From NCBI GenBank assembly GCA_021813555.1, contig JAKAKG010000120.1, positions 1 to 61,167 on the forward strand: a stretch of DNA of 61,167 nucleotides, given 5' to 3'. Origin of the DNA: Acidobacteriota bacterium. GTDB taxonomy: Bacteria; Acidobacteriota; UBA4820; DSQY01. The position numbers and the translations under genes are program-made. Of this stretch, positions 11,025-51,807 are shown piece after piece. The notes under the pieces were generated by a model. The model was not told the origin of the DNA. It did not search any database and saw nothing but the letters and a program-made list of their open reading frames with translations. Positions within the stretch are counted from its first letter, which is position 1, and every line of letters begins with the position of its first letter.

Positions 11025-11036
11025 CCGAACACCGGT

Positions 11037-11065
11037 AATCTACAGCAAAATGCCCCCTTTAGCAA
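11037..11065 (-). promoter_or_regulatory. Sigma70-type promoter of the NRAMP operon
   Basis: TTGCTA-17 nt-TAGATT. Confidence 0.6.
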
Positions 11066-11115
11066 GGGCCGGGTGCCCGCGAGTCCGGCGGCTACCAGGC
11101 TGCCGGGCCCCGCAG

Positions 11116-11144
11116 TTGCGCCGAGCCGCTTGGGCCGCTATACT
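11116..11144 (+). promoter_or_regulatory. Sigma70-type promoter of the receiver/GTPase-kinase operon
   Basis: TTGCGC-17 nt-TATACT. Confidence 0.6.
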
Positions 11145-11179
11145 GCATGAATCGAAGCGTGCGCGTTCGAGGGGGGGGG

Positions 11180-11557: not shown

Positions 11558-11558
11558 C

Positions 11559-25726: not shown

Positions 25727-25916
25727 GGAGGGAGGGACGGGAGCGGGAAGCGGGGAGAAGGGGAGCAGGCAGTGAACCGTGAGGCGTCAGCAGGCAGGAG
25801 CGAGGCATGAGCCGTGAGGAAGAGGTGGCGGGGCAAAGCGCCGCGCGGTCTTGAGCGTTTCTTTCTGCTCCCTGCTTCCCGCTCCCTGCTGCCCGCTCCC
25901 CGCTCCCCGCTCCCTA
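25727..25916. repeat. Inverted pair of GGGAGCA / CTCCCTG heptamer arrays
   Basis: gggagcgggaagcggggagaagggagcagg ... ctccctgcttcccgctccctgctgcccgctccccgctccccgctccct. Confidence 0.75.
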
Positions 25917-26513: not shown

Positions 26514-26543
26514 GGTCCGGTCTCCCCGCGGCGGTGCCGCCAT

Positions 26544-33075: not shown

Positions 33076-35036
33076 GCGGGTTCGCTCAGGTGTTCATCCT
33101 CGAAATGCGACTGCGAAAGGCCGTCTTCCCCGCGGCCCTCGTGGCGGGGCTCGTCCCCATACCGCTGGCCTTGCTCATGTGCAACGCGGCCAGTTTTTCA
33201 GAGTCCCTGAACGTGGGGGCCTTCGCCTTCGCCCTCATCGGCGGGGAGCTGCTGGCTCTGTACCTCGGCGCCACGGTTCTGTGCCAGGATCTGAGCGAGG
33301 GGCGGCAGGGCTTCTTCTTCTCCCGTCCCATCTCGGGCTGGGCCCTTTGGGCCGGCAAATTCTCCGCGGCGTGGCTCGTGGTCCTCGGCGCCATGTTCGT
33401 GACCCTCCTTCCCGCGACGCTGCTCGGCGAGGGCTTGGTCAACTTGGAACTCCTCGACAACCCCGCGGGGACCACCAGCCTGGGTGCGAGGTTTCTTTCT
33501 CCCCTTTGGACCCTGGCCTTCGTGGCCGTAGCGATCCTTCTGTTTATGGCCCTCGCGCACGCCTTGAGTGTCATGTTTCGCGCTCGCTCCCCGTGGCTCA
33601 TCCTCGACGCCGTCATGGTGGTTCTCCTGCCCGCGCTGGCCTGGTGGGGATTCAGACGCGTCATGGCGGAGAACCTCCAGTTCATGCTGCTGATCGCCCT
33701 ATTCGTTTGGGGAGGGTCCCTCCTCTTCATCCTCCTTCCCGCCGGAGCCTTGCAGACCGCTCTCGGACGGTGTGACCTGCGCCGCGGGCACAAGGTCCTC
33801 TCCATCACCCTATGGGGCACCGCATCGGCCGCGGTCCTGCTTGTGACCGGCTATATCGTGTGGGCCACGAGCATCGCCCCGTCGGGCCTGAAGAGCATCA
33901 GCTATATTCGTCCCGCGCCCGAGGGTCCCTGGGTCATCGTGGGCGGGCCCGGGCGGGGCCTTGGACCCTATGCGGATGCTACCTTTCTCCTCAATTCCCA
34001 GAGCGGCGCCTGGGCGCGGCTTTCGCTGAACATGTGGGGCGGCGTCCCGCTGTTCTCTCCCGACGGCAAGACGGCGGTGTTCTTTCGGCGGCCCATGAGC
34101 GAGAGCGAGCCCGGCGAGGTCGTGTCCTTCGACCTGACGGCCGCGGGCGATCCAGAGCCCGTGCACCACGGCATCCTTTTCCCGGGCTGGTCGCCTGACC
34201 TGACCTTCTCGCCCGACAGCTCGAAGCTCGCCATCCTCCACGACCTCTCACTGGACGTCTATGACCTCCCGTCTTGGAAACTCGCGGCGGTACGCAAGCT
34301 GGACCTGAAAAACGCGGGAGACCTCGTGTTCGCCGGGGACGACCTGATCCGGATCTACCAGGGTTCCGCCGGCCCGCAAGGGAGCAAGCCCGGCGTGGAG
34401 ACCCTTTCCATCTTCGAATGGGACCTGGGCAAGAAAACCTTCGATGCCACGGGAAAAACGGACGATGTCATGGGCTGGTCCCTGCGGATCAGCCCGGACC
34501 GCACCCGGATGCTTTTGGTTCAAGCGGGGGCTCAAAGCTCCCGTCTCCTGCTATGCGATGCCCGGACGGGGGCGGTGCTCAAGGTACTCTGGCAAGCCGC
34601 CGCCATCAGCAAAGCGGGCGGCGCCTTCCTTCAGGACGGCCGCATCGTGGTCATCGAACGAAAGGGAGACGAGCGAACCCTTCGCGTGTTCACCGCCGCA
34701 GGAGACGAGCAGCACACCGTTCAGTGGAGTCCGGGCACGGATCGCGGTGTTGGGTTCGGCCCCGAGCCGTTACCCGGGAAAGTCCTCCTCTCCTCTTACG
34801 TTCGGAGGAGCGAGTGGATCAAGACAAACGAGATGCATCTGTGGGACGTGGACACGGGCGCCATCACGCTTCTTCCGGGTCTGCACGCGACGTGGAGCGG
34901 CTGGTGGTCCTGGTACAACCGAGATATAGCGGCCTCGCCTGGAAGCCAGGGTGCCGATCTCTTCCTGAACGACAAGGGCCAACTCGTGCGCTACGACTTT
35001 GCGACGGGGCAACAGACGCCGATAAAATTGAAGTAG
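33072..35036 (+). CDS. ABC permease-like membrane protein with a C-terminal TolB/WD40-like beta-propeller
   Basis: About 7 TM, FFFSRPIS, then FSPDGKT, FSPDSSKL and ISPDRTR repeats. Confidence 0.75.
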   Translation: MSGFAQVFILEMRLRKAVFPAALVAGLVPIPLALLMCNAASFSESLNVGAFAFALIGGELLALYLGATVLCQDLSEGRQGFFFSRPISGWALWAGKFSAAWLVVLGAMFVTLLPATLLGEGLVNLELLDNPAGTTSLGARFLSPLWTLAFVAVAILLFMALAHALSVMFRARSPWLILDAVMVVLLPALAWWGFRRVMAENLQFMLLIALFVWGGSLLFILLPAGALQTALGRCDLRRGHKVLSITLWGTASAAVLLVTGYIVWATSIAPSGLKSISYIRPAPEGPWVIVGGPGRGLGPYADATFLLNSQSGAWARLSLNMWGGVPLFSPDGKTAVFFRRPMSESEPGEVVSFDLTAAGDPEPVHHGILFPGWSPDLTFSPDSSKLAILHDLSLDVYDLPSWKLAAVRKLDLKNAGDLVFAGDDLIRIYQGSAGPQGSKPGVETLSIFEWDLGKKTFDATGKTDDVMGWSLRISPDRTRMLLVQAGAQSSRLLLCDARTGAVLKVLWQAAAISKAGGAFLQDGRIVVIERKGDERTLRVFTAAGDEQHTVQWSPGTDRGVGFGPEPLPGKVLLSSYVRRSEWIKTNEMHLWDVDTGAITLLPGLHATWSGWWSWYNRDIAASPGSQGADLFLNDKGQLVRYDFATGQQTPIKLK

Positions 35037-38100: not shown

Positions 38101-39219
38101 GTGCCATCCGTATGGAGGTTCGTGGTGTTCCTTAGCATCGTTCTAACGGTTTGGACGGGGATGCACGCCTACGTCTTGTGGCGCGCCTGGCCGCTGGTGA
38201 CGGCCGTGGCCGTGCGGCGTGTTTTTTTGGGCGCAGCCGTCCTTCTCTGGCTCAGTTTTCCCCTGGGCCGTTTCGCGGCCCACGCGGGCTTGGGCCGGGC
38301 GGGCCGCGCCCTGGAGACCGCGGGTTCGCTTTGGATCGGGGTCCTCTTCATTTCCCTGGTGTGCCTCCTGGCCGCGGACCTGGTCACGGGCTTCGGCTGG
38401 CTGTTCCCCCGCCTGGTGCCGGCGGCGCGAACGGCGGCCTTCGCCGCCGCGGGCCTCCTCTCGTGCCTAGCCCTCGTTCAGGGCCTTCGCGCGCCGGTGG
38501 TGAAGGCGTACGAGGTGAAGCTGGCGGGCCTGCCGCCGGACCTCAACGGGACGGTCGTGGTCAAGCTTTCGGATATGCACTTGGGAGGGATACTTGGCCG
38601 CCGCTGGCTTCAGGATCGGGTGGCCCAGGTGGAAGCCCTTCATCCCGACGTCCTGGTTATCACCGGGGATCTCATCGACGGCGACGCGGGCGCCGTGGAA
38701 CCCCTCCTCCCCGAGTTGAGCCGCTTCCGTGCGCGCCTGGGCGTATGGGCCGTCACGGGCAACCACGAGTTCTACGCGGGACTGGAGCGGTGCGTGGCCC
38801 TGATGAAATCGGCGGGATTCAAGGTCCTTCGCGACCGAAGCGAGGTGGTGGCGCCGGGGCTGGTCTTCGCCGGGGTGGACGACCTCTCGGCACGGCGCCA
38901 GTTCAAGATGGACGGTGACCCCGTGGCCAGGGCCCTCCAGGGACGCCCCGAAGGAGCCACCATGTTCCTTTGCCACTCCCCCCTCCAGGTCCAAGAGGCA
39001 TCGAGGTTAGGCGTGGGCCTCATGCTCTCGGGCCACACCCACGACGGCCAGATCTGGCCCTTCGGATACGTTGTCAAACTCTTCTATCCTTACCTGGTGG
39101 GACGATACCTCGTGGGCGGAATGACCTTGATCGTCACCCCCGGTACGGGTACCTGGGGGCCTCCCATGCGCCTCTTCGGCCCCGGCGAGATTCTACGCAT
39201 CACCCTCCGGCCCTTGTGA
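38101..39219 (+). CDS. Membrane-anchored metallophosphoesterase (YkuE/YaeI-like)
   Basis: SDMH, GDLID, GNHE, CH, SGHTHDGQ. Confidence 0.92.
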   Translation: MPSVWRFVVFLSIVLTVWTGMHAYVLWRAWPLVTAVAVRRVFLGAAVLLWLSFPLGRFAAHAGLGRAGRALETAGSLWIGVLFISLVCLLAADLVTGFGWLFPRLVPAARTAAFAAAGLLSCLALVQGLRAPVVKAYEVKLAGLPPDLNGTVVVKLSDMHLGGILGRRWLQDRVAQVEALHPDVLVITGDLIDGDAGAVEPLLPELSRFRARLGVWAVTGNHEFYAGLERCVALMKSAGFKVLRDRSEVVAPGLVFAGVDDLSARRQFKMDGDPVARALQGRPEGATMFLCHSPLQVQEASRLGVGLMLSGHTHDGQIWPFGYVVKLFYPYLVGRYLVGGMTLIVTPGTGTWGPPMRLFGPGEILRITLRPL

Positions 39220-39317
39220 CCCCAAGGTGACACTTTATGGTACTTTCGCGGTGCCGCTGGGCGGCGCAAGGCCTTGCCCAAATCGGCCTATCCCTTTAAA
39301 ACCGAAGAGTTGTGCCG

Positions 39318-39333
39318 TGGCACCAAGGTTGCA
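39318..39333 (+). promoter_or_regulatory. Sigma54 (-24/-12) promoter of the pilin gene
   Basis: TGGCAC-CAAGG-TTGCA, exact consensus spacing. Confidence 0.75.
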
Positions 39334-39360
39334 TCGCTTTCCTTCCTTGGAGGGAGAACG

Positions 39361-39864
39361 GTGAGCAAAATGAAGGAAGAGAAGGGGTTCACCCTCATTG
39401 AGCTCCTCATCGTCGTCGCCATCATCGGCATCATCGCGGCCATCGCCATTCCCAACATGATCTCGGCCATCCAAAAGGCGAAGCAAAAGCGCGCCATGGG
39501 AGAGATCCGGGGCATGGGCACGGCGTGCAACTCCTACGCGACAGACACCAGTCATTTTCCTCTCGCCACCACCACCTACGCCGCCACGGACACGATTCCG
39601 GACATGGTTGAGCTGGCGCCCTACTACTTGAAGTCGGTGCCCAACCCCGATCCATGGAATGCCAAATATCAGTATGCGTCCACCTCGACGGGCACGGACT
39701 TCGCCGTGGCCTCGCTGGGCATGCTAAGCACGGCAGACACTCCTGATTTTACCTCGGTGCTCACGGTGAGCCCCCGGCCCACGAGCTGCTTCGAGAACGA
39801 CATCGTCTGGGTGAACGGCGCCTTCACGTACTATCCCGACGGAAAACAGAGCCGCTGCCAGTAG
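39361..39864 (+). CDS. Type IV pilin / GspG-like prepilin
   Basis: KG|FTLIELLIVVAIIGIIAAIAIP class III signal; C-terminal Cys residues. Confidence 0.9.
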   Translation: MSKMKEEKGFTLIELLIVVAIIGIIAAIAIPNMISAIQKAKQKRAMGEIRGMGTACNSYATDTSHFPLATTTYAATDTIPDMVELAPYYLKSVPNPDPWNAKYQYASTSTGTDFAVASLGMLSTADTPDFTSVLTVSPRPTSCFENDIVWVNGAFTYYPDGKQSRCQ

Positions 39865-39883
39865 GCCGGCTGAACGGCATCAG

Positions 39884-39922
39884 GTGCTCGGGTGATCGGG
39901 TAATCCAGTGATCTGGTGATCG
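39884..39922. repeat. GGTGATCG-like octamer array
   Basis: ggtgctcgggtgatcgggtaatccagtgatctggtgatcgc. Confidence 0.6.
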
Positions 39923-40150
39923 CGAAGAGGACAAGGGGCGCGTGGTTACTGTGCTGCCGTTTCCCGCCTCCGGCCGTTCAATTTCCACTTCCCAGGTCTC
40001 CGCACTTTCTTTCTTGACAATCCGGTGCCCCCTCCGCTATGGTTAAAATGCCAATACGCGCCACGTCGCGCGAAGTACGCGGAGGGGGAGGAGACGGTGG
40101 GGGGTGCCGTCCGAGCAAGACGAGAAGCCTCAGGCTCCTTGGGCATCGCC

Positions 40151-40588
40151 ATGGACGGGGTCCAGGTGTGCTCTTGGCCCTCAATCTTTGCGCCCCTGCG
40201 CACCGATGTCCTGAGCCAGGCTCCCTGGCCTTGTACAGTTACCCAGGCTTCGAGCCTTCTGAACTGGCTCTCCCGGGTTTTTCCACAGCGTCCCCTTCTT
40301 GCCATCACGCACCGTCCCCTTTCGGAGGATGATGGCGTGCCCGTGAGGGGGATCTCGGCCCTCGGCTCCGGGGTGGCCCTTGCCTCCTCGTGGCGCTTGG
40401 GAGACGAAGCGTTCCTTGGCGTGGCGCGCCATGAGGTGGCGCATGCCTTGGGGCTGGGGCATTGTGGCCGATGGGACTGCGCCCTGAGCGAGCGTCCCCA
40501 TCCCATGTCATTGGCGGACCGGCCCAATGAGTTATGTCCGGGCTGCATGGACCTTTGGGACGGGTTGTGCCGGGGGCTGGCGCCATGA
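40151..40588 (+). CDS. Archaemetzincin-like (M54) zinc metalloprotease; start uncertain (40025 or 40151)
   Basis: HEVAHALGLGHC, C-A-L-S, C-terminal CPGC. Confidence 0.75.
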   Translation: MDGVQVCSWPSIFAPLRTDVLSQAPWPCTVTQASSLLNWLSRVFPQRPLLAITHRPLSEDDGVPVRGISALGSGVALASSWRLGDEAFLGVARHEVAHALGLGHCGRWDCALSERPHPMSLADRPNELCPGCMDLWDGLCRGLAP

Positions 40589-42120
40589 GCGTTCGCACCG
40601 CAGCCCTGGCCGTCGTGCTCTCCTTTGCTTCCCTGTGCGTGGCGGCGGCGCCTGGGCCCCGCCCCGAACTGGACAGCGGTGCCTGCCTCTCCTGCCATGT
40701 CTCCCAGCTTGCCACGTTGCCGGCCCAACCGTGCATTTCCTGCCATTCGGGCAACATGGACTTCCTCCAGCGCCACGACGACCGTGGCGCGGACGCCTCC
40801 CTCTGGGTCATGGGAGCCGCGGGAGGAGGGTCCCTCGCTCTTCTCGGTCTCATTGGACTGGCGCGATTCAGAAGGTTGGCGCCGGCCTTGGCCGCGGCGG
40901 CCCTCTCGGCCCTCGCCGCCCCCGCCTTAAACGAGCATTCATCCATGCCGGCCCTCCCTGGATGGGTAACTTTGGCCGAAGGCTTCGCCTGCGACCTAGC
41001 CCCGGCCTTCTCTCCGGACGGGCAGGGCCTCCTTTTCGCCAGGCGCGGTCCCGATACCAATGGTGACGGGATGGTGGACCTGCGCGACGGCCAGGCGCTG
41101 TTCCTGCTCCGGCGCGATTGGGCCGCCCCGAAGCGGCTCACGCCCTACGTTCTTTACGCCGAGCCTGCCCTCGCCGTATGGTCCGCTGCGGGGGACCTGC
41201 TCGCCGTGCCTCTCCCGGCCAGGGGGTCCGAAGGCCCATCCATAGCCCTCTTCAGTTCAGAGGGCCGGCGGCTCTCGGCCCTTCCGTGCGAGGAACCGGC
41301 CATGGGCCTCTCCTTCTCACCTGACGGGCAAGCGCTGGCTTTCGCGGAAGGGAAGGGCATCGGCGCGTGGACCCTGGCTGACGGCGCCCGCACTTGGGCC
41401 TTGACACCCCTTGAGGGCGGCTCCTTCCCCCGTCTTGCCGGGTGGAACCCCTTCGGCGGCAGTCCTCTCTTTACGCGAGGATATGACTACTCCCGAATGG
41501 GCCGCACGCGGGACGGCCGGTATCACCTTCCGGACGAAGTTCTCCTGGAGACGGCTCAAAAGGGCACGAGCCGGCCTTTGACTTCGCCGCGTTCCGCGGC
41601 CCTGCGCCGCTACAAGGCGCAGCCGGTGGCGGGGGCCCTGTTCTACCTGGCCCAGAGCCGCGGCGGCCTCCCCGGCCTCTACCGGTTTGACGGCATGGAG
41701 GAGGCTCTCTGGTCGCGTGAGGATCAGGCGGTTCAAGGATTCTTGGCTGATGGTTCCGAGGCCTGCTGGGCGTGGGTCTCTTCCGGGGAAGGCGGCGCCC
41801 GGCTCCTTCGCTTCGAGGGTCCAGGACGCTTCCATGAAGCGGGCCCGGTCTTCCAGGCCAGCCTCCTGACTATGGCGGAGGACGGCGCCGGAGGCCTCTG
41901 GTGCTCGGGGGCCCCCATGGGGGGAGGCCTTCGGCGGCTCTTGTACGTGGATGAGCGGGGCCGGGTCTCGGTCCCCTTTGAGAACTGCGGCCAGGTGTTC
42001 GGCCTTGCCGCGCGGGCCGGGTCCGTGGCCTTTGTCACCGTTTCCAGGGACACGGACGGCGATGGCGGAATCACGCCCATGGACAGGGGGGAGCTTCGGG
42101 TACGGTGGGCCGCGCCATGA
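40585..42120 (+). CDS. Secreted/membrane protein: two CxxCH motifs, TM segment(s), TolB-like beta-propeller
   Basis: Signal peptide; CLSCH and CISCH; FSPDGQ repeats; DTNGDG and DTDGDG motifs. Confidence 0.7.
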   Translation: MSVRTAALAVVLSFASLCVAAAPGPRPELDSGACLSCHVSQLATLPAQPCISCHSGNMDFLQRHDDRGADASLWVMGAAGGGSLALLGLIGLARFRRLAPALAAAALSALAAPALNEHSSMPALPGWVTLAEGFACDLAPAFSPDGQGLLFARRGPDTNGDGMVDLRDGQALFLLRRDWAAPKRLTPYVLYAEPALAVWSAAGDLLAVPLPARGSEGPSIALFSSEGRRLSALPCEEPAMGLSFSPDGQALAFAEGKGIGAWTLADGARTWALTPLEGGSFPRLAGWNPFGGSPLFTRGYDYSRMGRTRDGRYHLPDEVLLETAQKGTSRPLTSPRSAALRRYKAQPVAGALFYLAQSRGGLPGLYRFDGMEEALWSREDQAVQGFLADGSEACWAWVSSGEGGARLLRFEGPGRFHEAGPVFQASLLTMAEDGAGGLWCSGAPMGGGLRRLLYVDERGRVSVPFENCGQVFGLAARAGSVAFVTVSRDTDGDGGITPMDRGELRVRWAAP

Positions 42121-45100
42121 GCAACCAGCCTCCGAAGGGAAAGCCCCCGGGAAATCGGGTTGCGGCCCCGCCTCGGCCCGCCTCCCACGCTGCCGTGCTC
42201 CGCCAGGGCCAAGCACCTCTCCGGCCAGGACAGGCGGGCCCCGCCGCCGCCAAGAAGGGGCCGGGGTGTCTCGGCTCTCTCTTCCTGGAGCTCACGGGCA
42301 TCGGCTTCCTGCTCCAGATCAAGCGCAAGCTGGGAGGCCTGGGCTTCTTTCTCGCCCTCGCGGGTGTGCTCTTCTTCTGTTTCATCCTCGGGGCGAGGAT
42401 CGAACGCTACGGTCACCTGGGCGAGCATCAGTACATCCTCCAGCTCCTGCCCATGGCCTCGTGCCTGTCGCCCATCCTGGCCTGGTTGATGTCCCTGGCC
42501 TTCGCCGTGGGAGACGTGCTGACCAACGCCACCTACTGGCTCTTCCCGCAGGATTCCAACCTCAACATGTATCATCTCTTCACCAAGGCCCACCCCCTGC
42601 TCACCTGGGGCGCCTACGCCCGGATGGATTTCTTTACCCTGCCGCTGTATGCGCTGTTGCCTGGTCTGGGGTCGAGGATCCTGTACGCCGTGGCTTCGCG
42701 AGCCTTCCACGCGGGGCGGGCCAAACTCATGAAGGACGGTGGCACGGGGGACACGGAAGCCCTCAAACGGCAGTTGAATCAAGCGCTGTCTGACCAAACG
42801 TCCTGTGCCCAGCGGGAGCGGGCCGTCTCGGACCAGTTCAATGGAGCCGATGCGGCCGCCGAGCGGGCCGGTGACCGGATACGGTCGGCGGAGGCTGGAG
42901 AACGTGAGGCGTCCTCGGCGGTGCAAGAGCAAAATGCTCAGACCCAGGAGCAAAACCTGCTGGCCGCCCGGGCTCGCGAGGAGGCGGGCCAGGCCCAGGC
43001 CCGTGCGTCAGCCGCCGGCCAGGAGGCATCGCGGTTCGAAGGGGAGCGAGACCGCGCCGGCGAGGCCCTTCGCCAGGGCAGCCTCCAGGAGGAGAACCTG
43101 AAGGGCCGCCTGGGCGATCTGGGCCGGAAGCGTGAAGAGGCGGATAACCTGGTGAAAGAGTGCCAGGGCAACCTGGAGGCCCTCGCCCGCGACCGGAAGG
43201 CCATGCAGGCGGCCATGGACACGGGCGTGGATCAAGACGGCAGACCCATGACTCCCGAGCGGATGGCCGCCGCCAAGAGAGCGTTGGATCAAAACCTCAT
43301 GGCCGAAGGGCGAGAGAGGGCCCGCTTGGACTCGGCGAGGGACCACCAGCGCGAACTCGCGGCTGAATCGGATCAAGCAAGGCGGGACCTGGAAAATCAG
43401 CAGAAGGCCAACGCCGAAGAGCTGGCGCGATTTCGGCAGGACGAGGCCCGGGCCGCCCAGGCGCGCCGGCGCCAGGAGCAAGCTCAGGAAGAACTCCGCG
43501 CCAAGGAAGCCGCAGAGGATGAGGCGAGGCGAGCGGCGGCCGAGTCCCAGCGCCGGGCACAGGAGGACATGGCGAGGCTGGAGGCCCTTCGCCAGGAGAA
43601 GGCCGCGGCCCTCCGCGATTTTCAATCTGCGGCCGCGCGGCGCAATGCCCTGGCGGATCAGCTCAAGGAAGCGCGAAGCGGCCTTGCGGCGGCCAACGGC
43701 AAAGTGTCTCAGATTCAATCAGCCCTTGGCCTGAGCGCCACGCCTCCCGTGGCGCCGGCGGATCCTTCCGCGGGGCATCACCGGCACCATCCCGATCCGA
43801 ACCAGGAGGTCATCCGCCAGTACGATCAGGCCATGGGCGCGGCCCAGGCCGAGCAGCGCCGCATGCGGGACATGATGGTGCGGCAGTGGCAGGCGGAGAA
43901 CCGCGGCCTCCTCCCTTCGGGCCTCGTGGGCGGCGAGGTGGCGGGAGTGGGCAGTCTCACCAGCCAAGGCTTCGGCCCCCTCGCCGCGGCCGCCGTTGGC
44001 GCCGCCGCGGGTTCGGCCCTGGGCGGGATGGCCCTCCACGGCCACATGTGGGCCGAGTACAACCCCATCCGCCAAATCGTCCACCCCTCGCACTCGGCTG
44101 ACGTGGGCTGCTACAGGATGGACGTGGGCTACCTGGACGGCAACATTCTGTCGGGCGTGGGTTCGGGCACGTCCGTCGCCCCCATAGCCGTGGTGGGGGC
44201 CGAGATGGGCGGCGTGCCTTCCGCGCCGCCGCCGGCGGGTCCCGGTACGGGCCTGCTTCCCCCGGGGCCCGAATCGCCCGGCGGCTGGGCCGCCCCGTCT
44301 CCCGGCGGCGGTATCCCAAGCGAAACGTCCGACGAGCAGGCAGCGCGGGACGCCGCCCGGAAAGCCCGCGACGAGGCGGACCGGTACAAGAAGCAGTGGG
44401 AGGAGTCGGAGGCCTCCGCCGACAAAAACGATCCCGGGTACAAAGACCTCAAGAAGCAGTACGACGACTACATTACGTCCAAAGAGGACGAAGCCGCCGC
44501 GGCCCAGGCTCGGGCCGACGCCAGCCAAAGCCAGCGGCAGGCCGATGAGGCCGCGGCCCAGGCCGCCAAGGACGCCAAAGATGAATGGATTCGCAACCGC
44601 CAGGACGACCTGAAGGCGGCGGCGGAGGAGAAGGCTCACCTCGAAGCGGTCATGGCGGGCGCGGCGGGCGCGGGGCTCAGCACCGCCGACCAGCAAACAA
44701 GGCTCAACCAGCTCAACCAGCGGTTGAGCGATCTCCACGGCCAGCTTCAGAAGGAGGGCGGCGATATCGACTACTCCGCCCGAGACCGAGGTGTCATCGG
44801 CCCCGGCAAGGAATTCCTGGAAGCCCCCGAGAAGGCGCGCCAGGAGGCGGCCAAGCTGGACTACCTCCAAAAGATGCAGAAGGCCGCCTGGGACCACGAC
44901 ATGGTCGATCCCGAGTCGGGCGGCAAGAAGGGCGACATGTACGGGCGGGTGGGGAACGCCATCAACGACTTCCTCGCCGGCAAGAAGCTCGACCCGGACA
45001 TGATCAAGCAGATGCGGGACAGCATCGGGCACCGCATCGACGGCACGACGGCGGACACCTCCCAGCTTCCGGGGCCCGAGAAGCCGTGGTGGCAGGACGG

Positions 45101-46763
45101 CGATTCCATGAGAAAGGCCGTCGCCGAGACGGGCCGCAACATCTCCACCTGCCAGACGAGCGACGGCAAGGTGTCCTGGTCGGGCCTCGCGGGCCGCGTG
45201 GGCATCGGCATCCTGACGGGCGGGACCTCGGAGTGGGTCTTCACCCCGGCGGGGGCGTTGCAGACCACCAAGGACGCGGTGGACCGCGGCGCCGACGGCC
45301 TTGAGGCGACTTACGAGGGCATCAAGGAGACGATCAAGCAGGAGCTCGGCGGAGCCCTCATCGGTGGCGCCCTCAAGACGGGGGCCGCCGGGTTCAAGGG
45401 GATGGCCCAGGCGGAGCTGGCCGGGGAGAACATCCTCAAGGGTGGCGCCAAGGGTGCCTGGGGCGGGCTCAAGGAAGTGGGCAAGGAGGGGGTCAAGGGC
45501 CTCACGGACGTGGTGAGCGCCCAGGCCTGGAAGGACACGGCGAAGGGGTTGACGGGCTCTCTCGGGAGCGGCCTCAAGCGCACGGGGGAGATCCTCACGG
45601 GCGAGGAGGGCCTCACCCTCGGCAAGGGCGCGGGGGAGGGGGCGGAGGCCGCGGCCAACGCGGGGCGCAAGCTACCGCCCTTCGGCTCCCCCGAGGCAGG
45701 CAAGCTGAACCAGCTCCAGGACGCCATCAAGAGCGGCGACCCGGACAAGGTGGCGGGCCTCTACCGCGAGGGCGGCATGAAGGACCTCTCGGACCTCCAG
45801 AAGGCGGGCTACATCAAGCCCGAGGACGCCCAGAAGCTGAACCAGCTCCTCCAGAACCAGGTGAACGGTGCGGTCAGCGACGGCACCAAGGCTGCCGTGA
45901 ACCAGTTCCCCGGCCAGACGGGGGTCCGCGTGAAGGAGGTCCTGGTGGGCGACAGCGGGTCCTCCGCCTCGGGTCCCCCTACGCGCCTCAAGACCGATGC
46001 GGATCGCACCCTCATTCCCACCTTCGACGAGGGCGACCTGCAGCGATACGCCCAGAAGAACGCCATGAGCCGCGACCAGGCCTACGACGAGCTCAGCCAA
46101 AAGTTCCGAGACTCGCACGAGGCCAACGTCTCCAAGGAGCTCCAGGACCGGGGCTTCGGGGACACGGGCAGCGGCAACCCCCAGAAGGCCGCCGACAACG
46201 TGGGATACGGGTCCTACGACCGCATCGGCGGCGGCTCGGGCAAGGCCGATTCCTACGCGGAGGGGTTCACCAACTCGCGTCAGGCCGCCCAGGGGAAAGG
46301 GACGAGCTACACCACGGACGCGGATGGCAACGTCTCTGGAAGCCACCAGGTCTCGGGCCAGTCGGTGGTGGACCAGAACCAGCTCAACCGGCAGAACTAC
46401 GGGGGCGAGGACATCGGGGGCCGGGAGCCCACGTCCATCCCCCCGAGCGAGGTCCCATCGGTCATGAACCAGCAGGCAAACGCCCTGGAGAAGCACGGCG
46501 ACGACCCGCTCTACGTGGCCAAGGCCGTGGGCCGGAGCGAGAAGATCGCCAACACCGTGGGCGAGTCCCTCGGCGACCAGCGCCTAACCCAGGCGGCCAA
46601 GGAAATCTACAGCGATCCCGGCAAGATGAACGATGTCCTGAAAAAATACGGTTACGTGGACGCCCACGGCAACCCCGACCCGTCGGCCTTCTGCTCCCAG
46701 GGTAAAGGCAGCGTCAACGGGTACGCCAACTCCTTCGATTCGGTCACGCCCGATACGCCTTAG
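42117..46763 (+). CDS. Giant hypothetical protein (1548 aa): TM region, long coiled coil, Gly/Pro linkers, C-terminal globular domain
   Basis: Uninterrupted ORF; start overlaps the upstream stop (ATGA). Confidence 0.85.
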   Translation: MSNQPPKGKPPGNRVAAPPRPASHAAVLRQGQAPLRPGQAGPAAAKKGPGCLGSLFLELTGIGFLLQIKRKLGGLGFFLALAGVLFFCFILGARIERYGHLGEHQYILQLLPMASCLSPILAWLMSLAFAVGDVLTNATYWLFPQDSNLNMYHLFTKAHPLLTWGAYARMDFFTLPLYALLPGLGSRILYAVASRAFHAGRAKLMKDGGTGDTEALKRQLNQALSDQTSCAQRERAVSDQFNGADAAAERAGDRIRSAEAGEREASSAVQEQNAQTQEQNLLAARAREEAGQAQARASAAGQEASRFEGERDRAGEALRQGSLQEENLKGRLGDLGRKREEADNLVKECQGNLEALARDRKAMQAAMDTGVDQDGRPMTPERMAAAKRALDQNLMAEGRERARLDSARDHQRELAAESDQARRDLENQQKANAEELARFRQDEARAAQARRRQEQAQEELRAKEAAEDEARRAAAESQRRAQEDMARLEALRQEKAAALRDFQSAAARRNALADQLKEARSGLAAANGKVSQIQSALGLSATPPVAPADPSAGHHRHHPDPNQEVIRQYDQAMGAAQAEQRRMRDMMVRQWQAENRGLLPSGLVGGEVAGVGSLTSQGFGPLAAAAVGAAAGSALGGMALHGHMWAEYNPIRQIVHPSHSADVGCYRMDVGYLDGNILSGVGSGTSVAPIAVVGAEMGGVPSAPPPAGPGTGLLPPGPESPGGWAAPSPGGGIPSETSDEQAARDAARKARDEADRYKKQWEESEASADKNDPGYKDLKKQYDDYITSKEDEAAAAQARADASQSQRQADEAAAQAAKDAKDEWIRNRQDDLKAAAEEKAHLEAVMAGAAGAGLSTADQQTRLNQLNQRLSDLHGQLQKEGGDIDYSARDRGVIGPGKEFLEAPEKARQEAAKLDYLQKMQKAAWDHDMVDPESGGKKGDMYGRVGNAINDFLAGKKLDPDMIKQMRDSIGHRIDGTTADTSQLPGPEKPWWQDGDSMRKAVAETGRNISTCQTSDGKVSWSGLAGRVGIGILTGGTSEWVFTPAGALQTTKDAVDRGADGLEATYEGIKETIKQELGGALIGGALKTGAAGFKGMAQAELAGENILKGGAKGAWGGLKEVGKEGVKGLTDVVSAQAWKDTAKGLTGSLGSGLKRTGEILTGEEGLTLGKGAGEGAEAAANAGRKLPPFGSPEAGKLNQLQDAIKSGDPDKVAGLYREGGMKDLSDLQKAGYIKPEDAQKLNQLLQNQVNGAVSDGTKAAVNQFPGQTGVRVKEVLVGDSGSSASGPPTRLKTDADRTLIPTFDEGDLQRYAQKNAMSRDQAYDELSQKFRDSHEANVSKELQDRGFGDTGSGNPQKAADNVGYGSYDRIGGGSGKADSYAEGFTNSRQAAQGKGTSYTTDADGNVSGSHQVSGQSVVDQNQLNRQNYGGEDIGGREPTSIPPSEVPSVMNQQANALEKHGDDPLYVAKAVGRSEKIANTVGESLGDQRLTQAAKEIYSDPGKMNDVLKKYGYVDAHGNPDPSAFCSQGKGSVNGYANSFDSVTPDTP

Positions 46764-46772
46764 AGGTGAGGC

Positions 46773-48098
46773 ATGCTCGTCGAACAAGGTGAGTGGATTC
46801 TGAACGAGGGAGAAATGGCTGCCGTGGCGGCCAGTTTCGGGATAGTGTCCTCGCCTCTCGGCGTGATCCCGAAGGCCCTTCCGCCGAAGGCCCTTGCGGA
46901 GGAGGCCGTCAAGGTTTTCCAAGACCTCGACCCATCGTTCAAGGGCCTCGCGGAGCGGTGCCTGAGGGCCCTCGCTGCGCCCGACAAGCTCGTGCACGTC
47001 CACAACGTCGTGGCCGACCAGCGGGTGAGCCGCGCCCTCATGGTTTTCTCTCCGGTCATGGGTGGGGCGTGGGTTTCCCTGGCCCGCTCGGGGGAGCTGC
47101 GCCGGGTGAGCCTCCGCTCCGAGGCCGAGCTCCGCTTCCTCGTGGCCGACGCCCTCGCCGCCGACGCGAGCCTCCGCCCCGACCGCGTGAGCGTGAACCT
47201 CTCCACCCCTGAAGCCCTCGTCCTCCTGGCCGTGTTCGAACAGCTGAGGCGGGCGAGGCTCATCTCCCTCCTGGACCACAAGGAGCCCGTGACCCTCTTC
47301 GCCGCTGAGGACGTGGAAGCGAGATTGAAGGAGGCGGACGTGGAGGACTTCCGCTGGACCCTCCCCTTCCTCGCCAAGCTCCTGCCCCTTCCCATGGGCG
47401 ACCTGGCCGTGACGAAAGATTGCCGCCCCGCCCTCATGGCCCTGGAGAAGGCGGGGCTCCTGGAGCGCCTGGGCATCCAAAACGATAGGATGGTGTGCGA
47501 GCTCACCAACCCCGGGGCCTTCCTCGAGGCGGGCTTCCGCGACTCCAGCGCGAGGGCGGCCCTCTCCGTGACGGCCCCCGTGCGCGGCGGGCTGGCCCAC
47601 GACGTCCTCCTCCTCGTGCGGTCCGCCTTCGACCTGTTCCTGGTGTCCTTGAGCGGAGGCGACGCGGCCCTTTCCACGATCCTCGCCGGCGACCTGGACG
47701 AGACCATGAAGCTCGTCTTTGCCCCCCCGCCCGCCCTTCCCGCGGAGGTACCCGAGCAGGGCGCGGAGGCCACGGTCATCCTGGACGGCCCCACCATGAA
47801 TCTCGCGCGCCTGGTGGTGGACGCGGGGCCCCTGGCGGGAACGGCCTGCGCCCTCGTGGACGGGCTAGGGCTCGGACGCCAGGCGGACAACGGCATGGTC
47901 ATCAACGATCCGGGCATCTCCCGGCACCACGCCAGGTTCCGCCGCGATCCGGCGGGGGTGTGGTCCGTGGAGGACCTGGGGAGCAGCAACGGCACCTTCG
48001 TGAACGAGGTCAGGATTACCGCGCCCATGGCCCTCCAAGACGGAGACCACATCAGGGTCAGCAACACCGTCATGACCTTCAATCCGCGCGAAGCCTGA
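46773..48098 (+). CDS. Hypothetical protein with a C-terminal FHA domain
   Basis: LGRQADN, ISRHHA, DLGSSNGTFVN; GAGG RBS. Confidence 0.88.
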   Translation: MLVEQGEWILNEGEMAAVAASFGIVSSPLGVIPKALPPKALAEEAVKVFQDLDPSFKGLAERCLRALAAPDKLVHVHNVVADQRVSRALMVFSPVMGGAWVSLARSGELRRVSLRSEAELRFLVADALAADASLRPDRVSVNLSTPEALVLLAVFEQLRRARLISLLDHKEPVTLFAAEDVEARLKEADVEDFRWTLPFLAKLLPLPMGDLAVTKDCRPALMALEKAGLLERLGIQNDRMVCELTNPGAFLEAGFRDSSARAALSVTAPVRGGLAHDVLLLVRSAFDLFLVSLSGGDAALSTILAGDLDETMKLVFAPPPALPAEVPEQGAEATVILDGPTMNLARLVVDAGPLAGTACALVDGLGLGRQADNGMVINDPGISRHHARFRRDPAGVWSVEDLGSSNGTFVNEVRITAPMALQDGDHIRVSNTVMTFNPREA

Positions 48099-48115
48099 GG
48101 CGAAGGGAGGCGGCG

Positions 48116-48676
48116 ATGGCCGAGTTTTGGAAAGACGGCTGGCAGGAGGACGCCTTCGGCAGGCTCCGGGGTTTCATCCAGTCGTCTCCCGCGTGGTACG
48201 AGAACCTCTCTCCGTCGGACGTGGCGGAAGACGCCTATCTCCTGGGCGTGGCCTCGACCCTCTTCCTGCGCGACGAGGACGCGGGGGCCAAGGCTTCGCC
48301 CGCTCCCTCCGCCGTCGCGCGAGAGGCCATGAAGCTCGCGCCCCTGGGCGTCCCCCCGTTCACCTATGAGCGCTCTCTTGTGGCCGGAGGCGACGCGTCG
48401 GCCTCCTACGCGGGATCGGCACAAGGCCGCTTCGGCGCGCTGCACGGGGAGGCCGCGCGGCGTGCCGGGTCTCAGGACCGTTGGGCCGCGGGCCTCGACG
48501 CCCTGCGGCGCGCGGGGGCCCTGCGCGCCCAGTGGCCCGAGGAGGAGCCTCTTCATGCGCCCCCCGTGGCCACCTTCGGAGAGGATATGCGCGCCTGCAC
48601 CCACGTCGTTCTTCGCAGGGCCGTGCACGCCTTTAAGATCGGATTTGGCCTCTGGGGCCGGTGGGAGTCTCCATGA
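48116..48676 (+). CDS. Hypothetical protein (186 aa)
   Basis: GGAGG RBS; coupled to the next gene. Confidence 0.7.
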   Translation: MAEFWKDGWQEDAFGRLRGFIQSSPAWYENLSPSDVAEDAYLLGVASTLFLRDEDAGAKASPAPSAVAREAMKLAPLGVPPFTYERSLVAGGDASASYAGSAQGRFGALHGEAARRAGSQDRWAAGLDALRRAGALRAQWPEEEPLHAPPVATFGEDMRACTHVVLRRAVHAFKIGFGLWGRWESP

Positions 48677-49095
48677 TCGAGACACGCCTGAGCCTGGGCG
48701 AGGCCCGCTATCTCCTCCAGGTTCTGGACCTGAAGCTCGCTCCCGAATCTCCCTTGGCGGATCCCCTTGGAGGGGCCGCCGAGGTTCCCGCGGGCAGCAC
48801 GGCCGAGGCCGGTGTGGCCAAGAGTCTCACGTCCCGGGGGCTACTCCTGAGCGACGGCGCGCCCAATCCCTTTGCGGCCGCGGCCATGGTGTGGCTGGCC
48901 CAGCCGGAGAAGGCGTGGACCCTCTCCCTTTTCGGACGCGGGGGCGCCGCCATGGTGCACCTGGCGTTCAAAGGAGGTTCGGCGGTGGAGTGCCGCCGCG
49001 ACGCGGAAGGCTTTCTCCTTCGCTATCCCCTCCCGGAGGCCGAGGCCGAAGGGTGGCTCCGCCTCCATGTGGACGGAGGACGCCATGGTTCTTGA
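48673..49095 (+). CDS. Hypothetical protein (140 aa), EspG-like pattern
   Basis: LSLGEARYLL...LTSRGLL...WLAQPE; ATGA overlap. Confidence 0.7.
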   Translation: MIETRLSLGEARYLLQVLDLKLAPESPLADPLGGAAEVPAGSTAEAGVAKSLTSRGLLLSDGAPNPFAAAAMVWLAQPEKAWTLSLFGRGGAAMVHLAFKGGSAVECRRDAEGFLLRYPLPEAEAEGWLRLHVDGGRHGS

Positions 49096-50200
49096 CGCGG
49101 CCTTCGCGCCCCAGGCCAACTTGGGCCTCAAGATTCTCTCTTTCTTCACCACGGGCGCCTTCTTTCTGATCACCCTCTTCCTCAAGCTCTGCTATTCCAC
49201 GGCCCTCTACGCCACCCTGGCGGAGATCTCCCGGCGCATCGCCCTTTTCAGGCAGACGAGGCGGCCGGCTCTGAGGGCCCTCCTCCTCCTGCCCGCGGTA
49301 GTCGTCTTCTGCACCGCCATCCTGTTCGCCCTCAACCTCTGGCGGGTGGTGTTCGGATCCCTTGATCTCAAGGGCTTCACGCAGGCCTTCAACCCCATGG
49401 ACATCATCTGGGTCTTTCTGCGAGGGGGCTTCTTCTTGGGGGCGGTTGCTCTGGGGGCGGTTCTGGGCCTCATGGTGGCCAACCACGTCACCCTGGGCCG
49501 GGACCGGTTCGGAGGCGTCCTTTATAAGAACCGGGGCCGTTACCTCGCCTTCTGGTTCGCGGCCTTCTCCGTGTGCGGCTTGTTCCGTCTGTTGCCTTGG
49601 GGCTTCGTGACCTACTGGACGGTCTGGGTCGTGGTCCTTGCCGCGTGCCTGGTGACGGCGGCCCACTGGTCCATCTACGGCAAGGTCAGGAGCGTTGCCG
49701 CGGCGACAGCGCCGGGCCTTCCAGCGGGAGGGGAGATCGCCTTCACCCTCGCGGCCCGCGAGGCGGTGGCCCTCTCAGCGCTCCTGCGCGGCCGGGCTCC
49801 CAGGGACGCGGAGGCCCTGGCCCGCTCGCTCGCCGACCCCGATCCCTCATGGCTCGCTCACCCCGCCTGGACCGCCGAGTTGAGGGTGCTGGTCCAAGAC
49901 CCCTCGGCCCTCGGCGCCGCCCTCGAAGGATTGTCCGTCAAAGGGCTCGCCGCGAAGAATGGGAAGGGATGGAGCCCCGCTGGCCCCGCCGCGCGTTTGC
50001 GCCTCATGGGCTTCGCCGAGACGGCGGCCGGTCTCACCGTGCGGAAGGCAGGGGCTGCCCGCACGGTAGTCCTCCACCTGCAAGGCCCCTCGGCCCTGCT
50101 CCTGGAGCCCGGTCCCGCCACCCTCGGCGTCCGAGAGTTTCCCCGCGGCGCCGATGCAGTTGCGGCGCTGGTCGGTGCCGCGGAGGGGCGTGCAGGGTAG
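49085..50200 (+). CDS. Membrane protein (about 5-6 TM) with a soluble C-terminal domain
   Basis: GGAGG RBS; hydrophobic N-half; C-half resembles the second unit of the 46773 protein. Confidence 0.75.
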   Translation: MVLDAAFAPQANLGLKILSFFTTGAFFLITLFLKLCYSTALYATLAEISRRIALFRQTRRPALRALLLLPAVVVFCTAILFALNLWRVVFGSLDLKGFTQAFNPMDIIWVFLRGGFFLGAVALGAVLGLMVANHVTLGRDRFGGVLYKNRGRYLAFWFAAFSVCGLFRLLPWGFVTYWTVWVVVLAACLVTAAHWSIYGKVRSVAAATAPGLPAGGEIAFTLAAREAVALSALLRGRAPRDAEALARSLADPDPSWLAHPAWTAELRVLVQDPSALGAALEGLSVKGLAAKNGKGWSPAGPAARLRLMGFAETAAGLTVRKAGAARTVVLHLQGPSALLLEPGPATLGVREFPRGADAVAALVGAAEGRAG

Positions 50201-50202
50201 AG

Positions 50203-50310
50203 TTCAGGAAACAGGAAGCCGGAAGAAGGAAGCAGGGAGCGCAGGCAGCGATGGGGCACAGCGCGTTCTTTCTGCTCCCCGCTCCCTGCTCCCCGCTCCC
50301 TGCTCCCTGT
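50203..50310. repeat. Inverted CAGGAAG/CAGGGAG and CTCCCTG arrays between convergent genes
   Basis: caggaaacaggaagccggaagaaggaagcagggag ... ctgctccccgctccctgctccccgctccctgctccct. Confidence 0.75.
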
Positions 50311-50313
50311 CCC

Positions 50314-51807
50314 CTAGAACCCGTAAATCTCCCCGAACTTGGCGTTGAGATACTCCAAAGCGGAATCGGCCGACAGGGGCTCGCCGGTCACTTTGGCGCA
50401 GAGGTCCTGGGGAAGGTACCGGCGGCCGTGGACGTGGATGTTGGCGTTAAGCCAGGCCTTCACGTCCCCCAGCTTTCCCGCGGCCACCCGCTCGTCGAGA
50501 TCGGGCATGTCGCGCCTCATGGCGCGGGCGAACTGGGCCGAGTAGAGATTGCCCAGGGCGTAGGTGGGGAAGTAGCCGATGAGCCCCACGCTCCAGTGGA
50601 CGTCCTGCAAGACGCCTTCCCGGTCGTCCGGTGGCACGATGCCGAGGAAGGAGCGCATCTTTTCGTTCCATGCGGCAGGGAGGTCCGCCGCCTCCAGCTT
50701 GCCCGCCAACAGGGCGCTCTCCAGCTCGAAGCGGAGGATGATGTGGAGGTTGTAGGTGACCTCGTCGGCCTCCACGCGGATGAGGGAGGGCTCCACCACG
50801 TTCACGGCGCCGTAAAACTCCTCCTCGGCCACCCCGTCCAGGACCCCCGGGAACGCGGCCTTGAGTTGCGGGAAATACCGCCGCCAGAAGGGCCGGGACC
50901 GGCCGATCATGTTCTCCCAGAACCGCGATTGGGACTCGTGGATGCCGAGGGAGCAGTACTGGCCCGCCGGATCCCGGTAGCGTTCCGGGTCGAGCCCCTG
51001 CTCGTAGAGGGCGTGGCCCGCCTCGTGCATGGTGCCGAAGAGGGCCATGTTCAGGAAGGTCTCCTGGTAGCGCGTGGTGATGCGCACGTCCCTGAAGGTG
51101 CCGTTGGTGAAGGGGTGGGCCGACACGTCCATGCGTCCCGCTTCCGTGTCGAACCCCATGTCCGCCATGACGCGGCGGCTGAAGGCTTCCTGGGCGGCCA
51201 GGGAATAGGGGCGCTTCACGAGGTCCTGGGAGGGCCTTCGCCGGGCGCCCTTGATCTTGTCCAGGAGGGGCACGAGACGGTCGCGAAGGTCCGAGAACGT
51301 GGCCGTGAGGGCCCCTTCGGTCATGCCCGGTTCGTATTCATCCAGGAGGGCGTCGTAGGGGTTCTGGTCACCTCCGATGGCCCGGGCCATCTCCCGCACG
51401 ATGTTGAGCACGGCCTCCAGGTGGGGCCTGAAGGCCGCGAAGTCGTTGTTCTTTTTGCCCTCTTCCCAGGCCACCTGGGCAAGGGCGCAGACTTGGGCCC
51501 GCTCGGCCACGAGGCGGGCCGGGACTTTCACGGCCCGGTCGCGGGCACGCTTGGCCTCGCGGACGTCGGCGGCCAGGCCGATGCCCAGGTCCTGCCTCGC
51601 GGCGAGCTCTTCGATGAGGCCGCCCAGCCCGGGCTCCGTCACCTTCTCGTGGATGGCCGTGGCCAGGGCCGCCTGGTGGTTGCCCCGCTGATCCACGCCT
51701 TTGCGCGGCATCATGACCTGCATGTCCCACTCCAGGAGCTGTTGCACCTCCTGGAGGTCGTGGATGGCACGGCACTTTTCGTAAAACTGCTCACTCGTGT
51801 TCGGCAT
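50314..51807 (-). CDS. Carboxypeptidase, family M32 (Taq-like)
   Basis: HPF, MHEAGH, IHESQS, IRVEADE, LQDVHW. Confidence 0.96.
   Translation of the reverse strand: MPNTSEQFYEKCRAIHDLQEVQQLLEWDMQVMMPRKGVDQRGNHQAALATAIHEKVTEPGLGGLIEELAARQDLGIGLAADVREAKRARDRAVKVPARLVAERAQVCALAQVAWEEGKKNNDFAAFRPHLEAVLNIVREMARAIGGDQNPYDALLDEYEPGMTEGALTATFSDLRDRLVPLLDKIKGARRRPSQDLVKRPYSLAAQEAFSRRVMADMGFDTEAGRMDVSAHPFTNGTFRDVRITTRYQETFLNMALFGTMHEAGHALYEQGLDPERYRDPAGQYCSLGIHESQSRFWENMIGRSRPFWRRYFPQLKAAFPGVLDGVAEEEFYGAVNVVEPSLIRVEADEVTYNLHIILRFELESALLAGKLEAADLPAAWNEKMRSFLGIVPPDDREGVLQDVHWSVGLIGYFPTYALGNLYSAQFARAMRRDMPDLDERVAAGKLGDVKAWLNANIHVHGRRYLPQDLCAKVTGEPLSADSALEYLNAKFGEIYGF

Follow-up and report, generated by a model that had tools for sequence, protein, structure and literature searches.

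A conserved seven-gene operon of Acidobacteriota centred on a giant membrane protein with a candidate nucleotidyltransferase-like domain

Introduction

What could a tightly packed operon of seven genes do, if it resembles no named bacterial system? This question is raised by a stretch of 61,167 nt from an Acidobacteriota bacterium (GenBank assembly GCA_021813555.1, contig JAKAKG010000120.1), which was analysed as a whole and is called the window below. Seven open reading frames (ORFs) on its + strand, spanning 40025/40097-50200 and labelled G1 to G7, had been pointed out in an earlier note, made from the letters alone, as an operon of unknown function and a candidate new secretion, effector or envelope system. 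We find that the genes belong together, that their order is conserved in related Acidobacteriota, and that the giant membrane protein G3 ends in a domain, termed region B, with a confidently modelled fold and a partner gene that accompanies it in distant bacteria too. As to function, we tentatively read the operon as encoding a transmembrane complex of receptor-like type with a signalling or regulatory role, which is possible rather than established. The absence of a named counterpart was borne out, since PADLOC, Pfam and NCBIfam returned none.

The operon and its conservation

The coupling of the seven ORFs, which occupy 40025-50200 on the + strand, can be read directly in the sequence. Stop and start codons overlap as ATGA at 40585, 42117 and 48673, and G6 and G7 overlap by 11 nt (49085-49095). 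The gap between G3 and G4 is 9 nt (46764-46772) and holds GAGGTGAGG, while the gap between G4 and G5 is 17 nt (48099-48115) and holds GGGAGG, both being Shine-Dalgarno-like purine runs. All these junctions are as the earlier note had described them, and the seven genes form one real, tightly coupled operon.

Where does the operon begin? A sigma-70-like promoter candidate, TTGACA-18-TATGGT (40014-40043, + strand, 10 of 12 hexamer positions matching), lies upstream of G1, and 39000-51000 yielded no other promoter-like site; it matches the consensus only, and sigma-70 rules may not hold for this phylum. The G1 frame is open from a GTG at 40025, which this site overlaps. A second GTG, at 40097, has GGAGGAG 4 nt upstream and gives a protein of 163 amino acids (aa), and the homologues of G1 measure 159-182 aa. 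On these three grounds the start at 40097 is more likely than that at 40025. Public gene calls start G1 at 40337, thereby losing conserved sequence.

Co-occurrence of the genes elsewhere had been named beforehand as the point on which the idea of a unit could fail, and the order does recur. In tblastn and hidden Markov model (HMM) searches, every related Acidobacteriota locus that is long enough keeps the order G1-G7, which is complete in L007, L008, L010 (identical to L018), L013, L014, L016, L019 and L020, and partial cassettes of matching order, ended by contig ends, are present in L011, L012, L015, L017 and L021. In all, the count is at least 7 distinct complete loci, with 7 more that contig ends cut short. 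Even the 4-11-nt overlaps between genes are seen again in L008 and L010, according to their gene calls. Since the entire gene order is conserved, the cassette is more than a chance arrangement. The nearer relatives L011-L014 have syntenic flanks, with Metallophos and pseudopilin genes upstream and M32-S9-Omp85 downstream, and in the four distant loci L007, L008, L010 and L019 the flanks are unrelated. Because the order holds while the flanks behave in this way, the seven genes are, judged from synteny, a unit that has been vertically inherited within a sub-lineage, outside any obvious mobile island.

The earlier note had also held, by eye, that the first genes are rich in A/T-ending codons. 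This stands in a mild form: the G+C content at third codon positions (GC3) is 0.72 in G1 and 0.78 in G2, as well as 0.77 in G6, compared with 0.83-0.90 in the neighbouring genes, and the total GC is unchanged. Horizontal transfer was considered as an explanation for the low GC3 of G1 and G2 and was rejected, since these genes do not differ in total GC and relatives keep the locus in synteny.

The giant protein G3 and its C-terminal domain

G3 (42117-46763, + strand) is a membrane protein of 1548 aa, whose layout was derived from hydropathy and a conservation profile. About four hydrophobic helices (residues ~50-195) are followed by a coiled coil (residues ~205-560), which is the least conserved part of the protein (28-45% identity) and contains the sole family match for G3, a sub-threshold SMC-like one at residues 226-533. 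The membrane-spanning, coiled-coil character assigned to G3 in the earlier note is thus retained. Within residues 600-700, two weakly hydrophobic Gly/Ala segments bracket a His/Cys-rich stretch of 40 aa, HGHMWAEYNPIRQIVHPSHSADVGCYRMDVGYLDG, which is 80% conserved. A helical region, region A (residues ~905-1170) and region B come next, and the C-terminal 800 aa are well conserved. The full-length relatives number 12 and are all of the cassette type, and no match to G3 was found in Pfam or among PDB sequences.

Is the C-terminus of G3 then restricted to this cassette? The last 359 aa were used in an exhaustive profile search of 1.84 billion representatives, which recovered 141 clusters formed at 50% identity; for 107 the match was below 1e-30. 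In the full-length sequences, region B (residues 1189-1544; 45681-46748, + strand) is the C-terminus of membrane proteins of ~900-1950 aa, preceded by region A in a subset of the family. It is constant in the 75 proteins inspected, while their N-termini vary, from a signal peptide with beta-rich or Ig-like domains and one transmembrane helix, through polytopic modules and zinc ribbons, to very long coiled coils. Those relatives that combine a signal peptide with just one transmembrane helix place the region B module in the cytoplasm, by prediction, and the FHA domain and zinc ribbons of its partner, described below, agree with this placement.

Among 37 region B sequences with identities of 23-60%, G43, G93, D106, D108, L138, D190, Q265, K281, R285 and P313 are invariant, and D91, S92, S94 and T110 are nearly so, which gives the signature VLVGDSGS-x11-TDADRT. 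An AlphaFold model built from 11 close sequences had a predicted local distance difference test score (pLDDT) of 74, and its Foldseek matches were meaningless. With a diverse alignment, AlphaFold (AF2) gave a pLDDT of 94.2 and a predicted template modelling score (pTM) of 0.92 for the cluster representative P0041, which is one residue off the window protein. In this confident model, N-terminal helices, one of them 34 residues long, lead to a strand (84-91) ending at GS, a loop and a strand (109-115) after DxD; three more strands and a C-terminal helical lobe complete a two-lobed alpha/beta domain.

The signature of Pol-beta nucleotidyltransferases (NTases) is hG[GS]x9-13Dh[DE]h, located on beta1-loop-beta2. 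In region B, G93-S94-x11-D106-A-D108 fits this pattern and lies on the strand-loop-strand of the model. Because of this spacing, we lean towards region B being a divergent two-lobed NTase-like enzyme domain, as a candidate and not as a demonstrated member. With FAM46/TENT5 and with cGAS, OAS and the CD-NTases it shares the GS-x11-DxD, a long helix before beta1 and a helical C-terminal lobe with invariant K/R, but it differs from them in having no significant structure or profile match, and we know of no member of these families that a giant coiled-coil protein anchors in the membrane. Should a structural match emerge later, region B might come to be classed with the NTase superfamily, as a divergent member.

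Several results weigh against this assignment. Foldseek against PDB gave nothing significant: the best matches, FAM46B and FAM46C, have E 0.47-1.0 and TM-scores of 0.23-0.25, and the whole set, with two-lobed NTases on top and cGAS lower, is non-significant (E 0.47-4, TM-score at most 0.25). No NTase family was found in a Pfam scan of 37 members, which returned a single DUF294_C match at 0.07, and the PDB profile searches with region B were empty. For the third catalytic carboxylate, the invariant D190 is a candidate only. The BFVD library of viral folds likewise contained no match to region B. An actin/ASKHA reading of LVGDSGS...TDADRTLIP as a phosphate-1 motif was dropped, since the model with pLDDT 94 has no ASKHA match above a probability of 0.05.

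G4 and the two-gene core

The next gene, G4 (46773-48098, + strand), encodes 441 aa divided between an N-terminal part of ~330 aa, G4N (46773-47762), and a C-terminal FHA domain (about 47799-48089). The latter matches PF00498 at 5.5e-20 (72 bits, cutoff 20.7), so that the FHA gene named in the earlier note is one, and by its family the domain is predicted to bind phosphothreonine; the Yop-YscD_cpl model matches G4 as well, at 2e-11. G4N has no Pfam or NCBIfam family. Its profile, built from 11 diverse sequences, gives weak and repeated matches to winged-helix proteins of the MarR, AdcR and RosR type (E 0.009-0.2, residues ~203-270), which cover the recognition helix and the wing, and it matches nothing else; the winged-helix-like stretch is put at residues ~200-265.

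A G4N-like gene directly adjoins the G3-like gene in 17 of the 22 metagenome loci recovered with region B, and also in L043, mostly downstream and in two loci (L028, L035) upstream. The FHA domain is the exchangeable part. The G4 homologue of L008 lacks it; of the 10 G4N-like proteins scanned, 8 have zinc ribbons or double zinc ribbons at the C-terminus in its place, and others carry neither. The genes beside the pair are unrelated between distant loci. The loci span 34% to 70% G+C, and for this reason the pair should be either old or mobile across distant bacteria. On these comparisons, G3-like and G4N-like genes are a rare and apparently old two-gene core, in which G4 would be the obligate partner.

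Two further loci may be described here. In a Ruminococcaceae metagenome-assembled genome (MAG), a zinc-ribbon protein with multiple transmembrane segments is encoded just upstream of the G3-like gene (L042, 720-1616), and the same protein appears, by eye, fused as the N-terminus of the G3-like P0055 (residues ~40-250), which amounts to a Rosetta-stone link. In L044 (GCA_015231405.1, ~8001-12407), the G3-like P0080 stands between a midasin-like AAA_5/VWA protein of >5000 aa and a WD40-rich protein of >6000 aa, and no recognisable G4N was found at this locus.

The remaining subunits

What do the other five genes add? They were detected in Acidobacteriota loci only, and the cassette HMMs of G1, G2, G5, G6 and G7 had no matches in the distant loci and the representatives.

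G1 (40097-40588, + strand) is an archaemetzincin-like Zn metalloprotease of 163 aa, recognised by motif and profile match; it has no signal peptide and is predicted to be cytoplasmic. Its motif HEVAHALGLGHC...C...C..C, invariant among 6 homologues (alignment A7), comprises an HExxHxxGxxH zinc site and a four-Cys second metal site of the CX4CXMX17CXXC type. The family profile matches archaemetzincins of known structure (2x7m at 1.1e-10, 3zvs/4axq at 1.2e-6), with matches down to 6e-6. G1 falls below the curated cutoffs, with 33.5 bits versus 145 for NCBIfam archmetzin (3.7e-8) and 17 bits versus 24.4 for Pfam, and is called divergent because the curated HMM cutoffs were missed. By motif and PDB-profile match, then, the metzincin of the earlier note is a divergent archaemetzincin (M54), with predicted protease activity. 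It shares the HExxHxxGxxH and the four-Cys site with the known members (AmzA, human AMZ1/AMZ2), and matches the solved ones at ~1e-10; unlike them, it is divergent and the first gene of a conserved membrane-complex operon. No report of such a membrane-complex context was found in a literature search on archaemetzincin operons, and to our knowledge the family, human AMZ1/AMZ2 included, is without an established physiological substrate.

G2 (40585-42120, + strand) encodes 511 aa and begins with a signal peptide. After it, two CxxCH motifs lie within ~20 residues, both invariant (alignment A8), and form a mini-domain; there follow a hydrophobic anchor, then RR, a second and weaker hydrophobic stretch, and a WD40/PD40 beta-propeller with DxDGDG loops. 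The propeller matches the PD40 repeat at 1.2e-6 and, by profile, WD40-type propellers in PDB at 1e-32 and TolB at 3e-5, and at the N-terminus there is a faint ExtS-like NCBIfam match (0.052). Hence, of the diheme/propeller protein that had been claimed, the two CxxCH motifs and the propeller stand, while heme attachment and the membrane side of the propeller are predictions.

The three genes at the end of the operon encode, as claimed, two small proteins and a multi-transmembrane protein. G5 (48116-48676, + strand) is a soluble protein of 186 aa with invariant ends (alignment A3), W..WQE..F.R at the N-terminus and HA.(K/R)IGFGLWGRWE at the C-terminus; it has no Pfam, NCBIfam or PDB match, and its relatives occur in Acidobacteriota cassettes only. 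G6 (48673-49095, + strand, 140 aa) is an EspG-like half-domain protein. PF14011 matches 8 of 8 homologues, at best at 9.7e-9, and the window G6 itself at 25.6 bits, just under the cutoff of 27; the family profile also meets the sequences of EspG3 structures at E 0.02 over ~50 residues (42-91). In comparison with EspG, the chaperone of the type VII secretion system (T7SS), G6 and 7 homologues match the N-terminal model positions 31-107 of 245; however, G6 is half the size (140 aa versus ~280), lies below the gathering threshold, is accompanied by no T7SS core or PE/PPE/WXG substrates, and belongs to a phylum without a described T7SS. G7 (49085-50200, + strand, 371 aa; alignment A1, 24 relatives) has ~5 hydrophobic helices (residues 1-204), with predicted cytoplasmic loops that are very basic, and a soluble C-terminal domain (G7C) of ~165 aa (residues 205-371). 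Its family comprises 40 clusters that are 42-100% identical, the named ones all being Acidobacteriota MAGs, and among 185,579 species, each represented by one genome, 8 carry it, every one of them bearing the label Acidobacteriota or Thermoanaerobaculia; no Pfam, NCBIfam or PDB match was found for G7. The transmembrane domain of G7 was also compared with the polytopic module of other G3-like proteins: hhalign gave E 0.13 and HMM searches were empty, and no link is claimed.

Are some of these proteins paralogues, as the phrase 'chaperone-like paralogues' in the earlier note implied? In hhalign comparisons of G4N, G5, G6, G7C and G1, the best values were E 0.014 (G6 versus G7C) and 0.076 (G6 versus G4N), which are suggestive; paralogy is not statistically demonstrable and is not claimed, and only the EspG-likeness of G6, itself sub-threshold, is reproducible.

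A proposed receptor-like complex and its alternatives

How might these parts work together? We propose, tentatively, that the operon encodes a membrane-embedded and mostly cytoplasm-facing complex of the receptor type, and no secretion machine. G3 would be the giant receptor, made up of a membrane anchor, a coiled-coil stalk and a conserved cytoplasmic module of ~650 aa that ends in the NTase-like domain. In other lineages, envelope-side input would be read by N-terminal domains that lie outside the cytoplasm, vary between proteins and are fused to the G3-like protein, while in Acidobacteriota it would be given in trans by G2, perhaps also by the His/Cys-rich loop of G3. The coiled coil would relay the signal to the enzyme domain at the C-terminus, whose access or output G4 would gate. 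G4 would consist of a winged-helix-like core and an exchangeable adaptor, here a phosphothreonine-binding FHA domain that would recruit it to a phosphorylated site, elsewhere zinc ribbons. G5, G6 and the C-terminal domain of G7 may serve G7, the membrane protein, as subunits of an adaptor or chaperone-like kind, and the cytoplasmic G1 may process or clear a component of the complex.

The receptor-type reading is suggested because a constant C-terminal module follows variable N-termini, the pattern of receptor-type enzymes. Histidine kinases, class III adenylate cyclases and GGDEF receptors share with G3 a variable N-terminal sensor, a transmembrane part, a helical or coiled-coil linker and a constant cytoplasmic C-terminus. 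However, the output domain of G3 is in none of their families and needs an adjacent partner gene, and signalling is only proposed here. Some observations also speak against the receptor-type reading. The propeller of G2 is ambiguous in its sidedness, with the second hydrophobic segment weak in some homologues, and no kinase able to make the ligand of the FHA domain was found by Pfam scans of the window. A G4N-like gene is missing from 5 of the 22 metagenome loci, four of them short contigs and one, L029, with flanks of 10 kb. Finally, the roles of G1, G2, G5, G6 and G7 are unreadable from the wider family, because these genes are confined to one lineage.

Could the core pair serve in conflict between cells or against phages instead? 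AbiEii/MenT NTases pair with AbiEi/MenA in type IV toxin-antitoxin systems, and region B might similarly be an NTase toxin restrained by G4N, in a membrane-anchored toxin-antitoxin or abortive-infection module whose variable outer domains sense contact with phages or competitors. The resemblance to AbiE/MenAT is in the arrangement: an NTase-like domain is encoded beside a protein of ~300 aa with a winged-helix-like stretch (~330 aa here), in strict adjacency. The rarity and patchiness of the pair (141 clusters in 1.84 billion representatives, loci with GC 0.34-0.70), its highly variable N-terminal surface domains and its non-conserved neighbours in distant loci would all suit such a module. 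Yet PADLOC-DB v2 has 0 families for the seven proteins at E <= 0.1, neither region B, G4 nor their relatives match DUF1814/AbiEii, AbiEi or another toxin NTase, and the Acidobacteriota locus is stably syntenic amid core genes over ~60% protein identity, and not in a variable island. Moreover, the enzyme-like domain makes up the end of a giant membrane protein, and a toxin of 1000-1900 aa with a membrane anchor and a long coiled coil would be atypical for toxin-antitoxin systems; we consider the conflict module unlikely. A structural role appears still somewhat less probable. Here G3 would be a coiled-coil filament or tether of an envelope or cytoskeletal scaffold (for shape, division, an appendage or gliding), anchored by G2, G7 and others, with a non-catalytic region B. 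Its coiled coil of >330 aa with the SMC-like match, Gly-rich helical repeats at residues 1080-1190, the likeness of the G4 FHA domain to GltG/FhaB-type modules, and the stable synteny beside Omp85/OmpH envelope genes would all fit, and so would the pseudopilin gene directly upstream, which L013 and L014 keep in synteny. On the other hand, L008 and L010 lack this pseudopilin gene, the invariant G, S, D, D, D, Q, K and R of region B, at 23-60% identity, look catalytic, and it is precisely the coiled coil that is least conserved and is swapped for other architectures in relatives.

The secretion or effector system suggested at the outset, akin to type VII secretion or polymorphic toxins, is the least probable of these explanations. 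It would have G3 exported, G5 and G6 as chaperones, G1 as the processing protease and G7 as the channel, and it can draw on the reproducible likeness of G6 to the N-terminal half of EspG, on the FHA domains known in EssC of the T7SS and in YscD of the type III secretion system (which the Yop-YscD_cpl match of G4 recalls), and on the presence of a protease and a membrane protein. But the machinery is missing. The absence of FtsK ATPase and WXG100 genes, already seen in the earlier note, was confirmed with Pfam for the seven cassette proteins and ~36 further ORFs of the window; more broadly, no FtsK/EssC/EccC, WXG100, EccB/D/E or EssA/B was detected in the cassette, the window or the Pfam-annotated homologous loci, so that the cassette has no translocating ATPase and no energy source. 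Nor were there PE, PPE or LXG matches in Pfam or NCBIfam, and G5 and G6 are not WXG-like. G3 does not look like a giant effector either: it is an integral membrane protein with a polytopic N-terminal anchor, its conserved module would be cytoplasmic by the topology of relatives, and its partner carries cytoplasmic FHA or zinc-ribbon modules. The conserved C-terminus (~356-650 aa) and variable N-terminus are the reverse of the polymorphic-toxin pattern, the downstream G4N is itself conserved, and the paralogy of the supposed chaperones is not significant.

Returning to the receptor-like complex, what would it mean? No description of the cassette was found in literature searches on EspG in Acidobacteria, archaemetzincin operons and FHA, zinc-ribbon or NTase membrane systems, and we regard neither the cassette nor the core pair as belonging to any kind of system known so far. 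Of the seven proteins, four (G3, G4 through its N-terminal domain, G5 and G7) are in no curated family, and since region B combines a confident fold and enzyme-like invariants with no significant structural neighbour, it defines, with its partner, an unstudied module across bacteria of very different GC. If region B is catalytic, this would be a new coupling of envelope sensing to nucleotide chemistry; if the function is structural or defensive, the family still merits a name and a model. The operon links one particular complex with an archaemetzincin and shows an EspG-like fold outside type VII secretion. A bolder version, which we offer as speculation with little weight, is that G3-like proteins are an unrecognised class of receptor-type nucleotidyltransferases, in which an extracytoplasmic sensor, or G2 in trans, would control the new-fold domain through the stalk, and this domain, with the winged-helix partner, would either synthesise a nucleotide signal or modify a target by nucleotidylation; the operon would then be the first defined cellular context of an archaemetzincin, would offer a candidate substrate complex for it and would hold the first EspG-like adaptor outside type VII secretion.

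Flanking features and other genes of the window

Repeat arrays had been reported on both sides of the operon. The upstream one is present as 4-5 direct repeats with an 8-nt period and GGTGATC-like units (39879-39922), between the pseudopilin stop codon and the candidate G1 promoter, and could be a binding array for a regulator. What lies downstream is instead an imperfect inverted repeat of 119 nt (50198-50316, no strand assigned), between the convergent G7 and M32 peptidase genes, with arms of 43 nt that are 74% complementary. Its minimum free energy of -60.3 kcal/mol (z -3.1) was equalled by 0 of 200 shuffles, and the hairpin is a probable bidirectional terminator. The hairpin is purine-rich/pyrimidine-rich, and both arms carry tandem units of 14 nt.

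Directly upstream of the cassette is the pseudopilin gene (39358-39864, + strand; N_methyl and T2SSG, of type II secretion or type IV pili), which might have a functional link to the cassette or be a mere neighbour. The window as a whole has a G+C content of 65-70%, and its Pfam content (DAHP synthase, Nramp, UvrB, PyrD/PyrF, Omp85/OmpH, GGDEF/EAL proteins, a histidine kinase and a SpoIIE phosphatase) is, judged by these families, that of an ordinary bacterial core chromosome. By exact sequence match, it was also located in an Acidobacteriota MAG (GCA_027349505.1) and in several metagenome assemblies. The SpoIIE/PP2C phosphatase domain forms the C-terminus of an 809-aa protein (2376-4805, - strand), whose gene, 35 kb from the FHA gene, is the only one related to Ser/Thr phosphorylation seen in the window.

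Among the other genes, two ORFs with gene-like GC3, at 32901-35036 (+ strand, 711 aa) and 25914-26543 (- strand, 209 aa), have no Pfam match at E <= 1e-4. At 265-1485 (- strand), an S-adenosylmethionine (SAM)-methyltransferase domain is fused to a Mut7-C RNase domain. The histidine kinase (11499-13634, + strand, 711 aa; HisKA and HATPase_c) matches the Arf/small-GTPase family PF00025 at its N-terminal residues 82-201 (2.5e-7), and looks like an unusual GTPase-kinase fusion.

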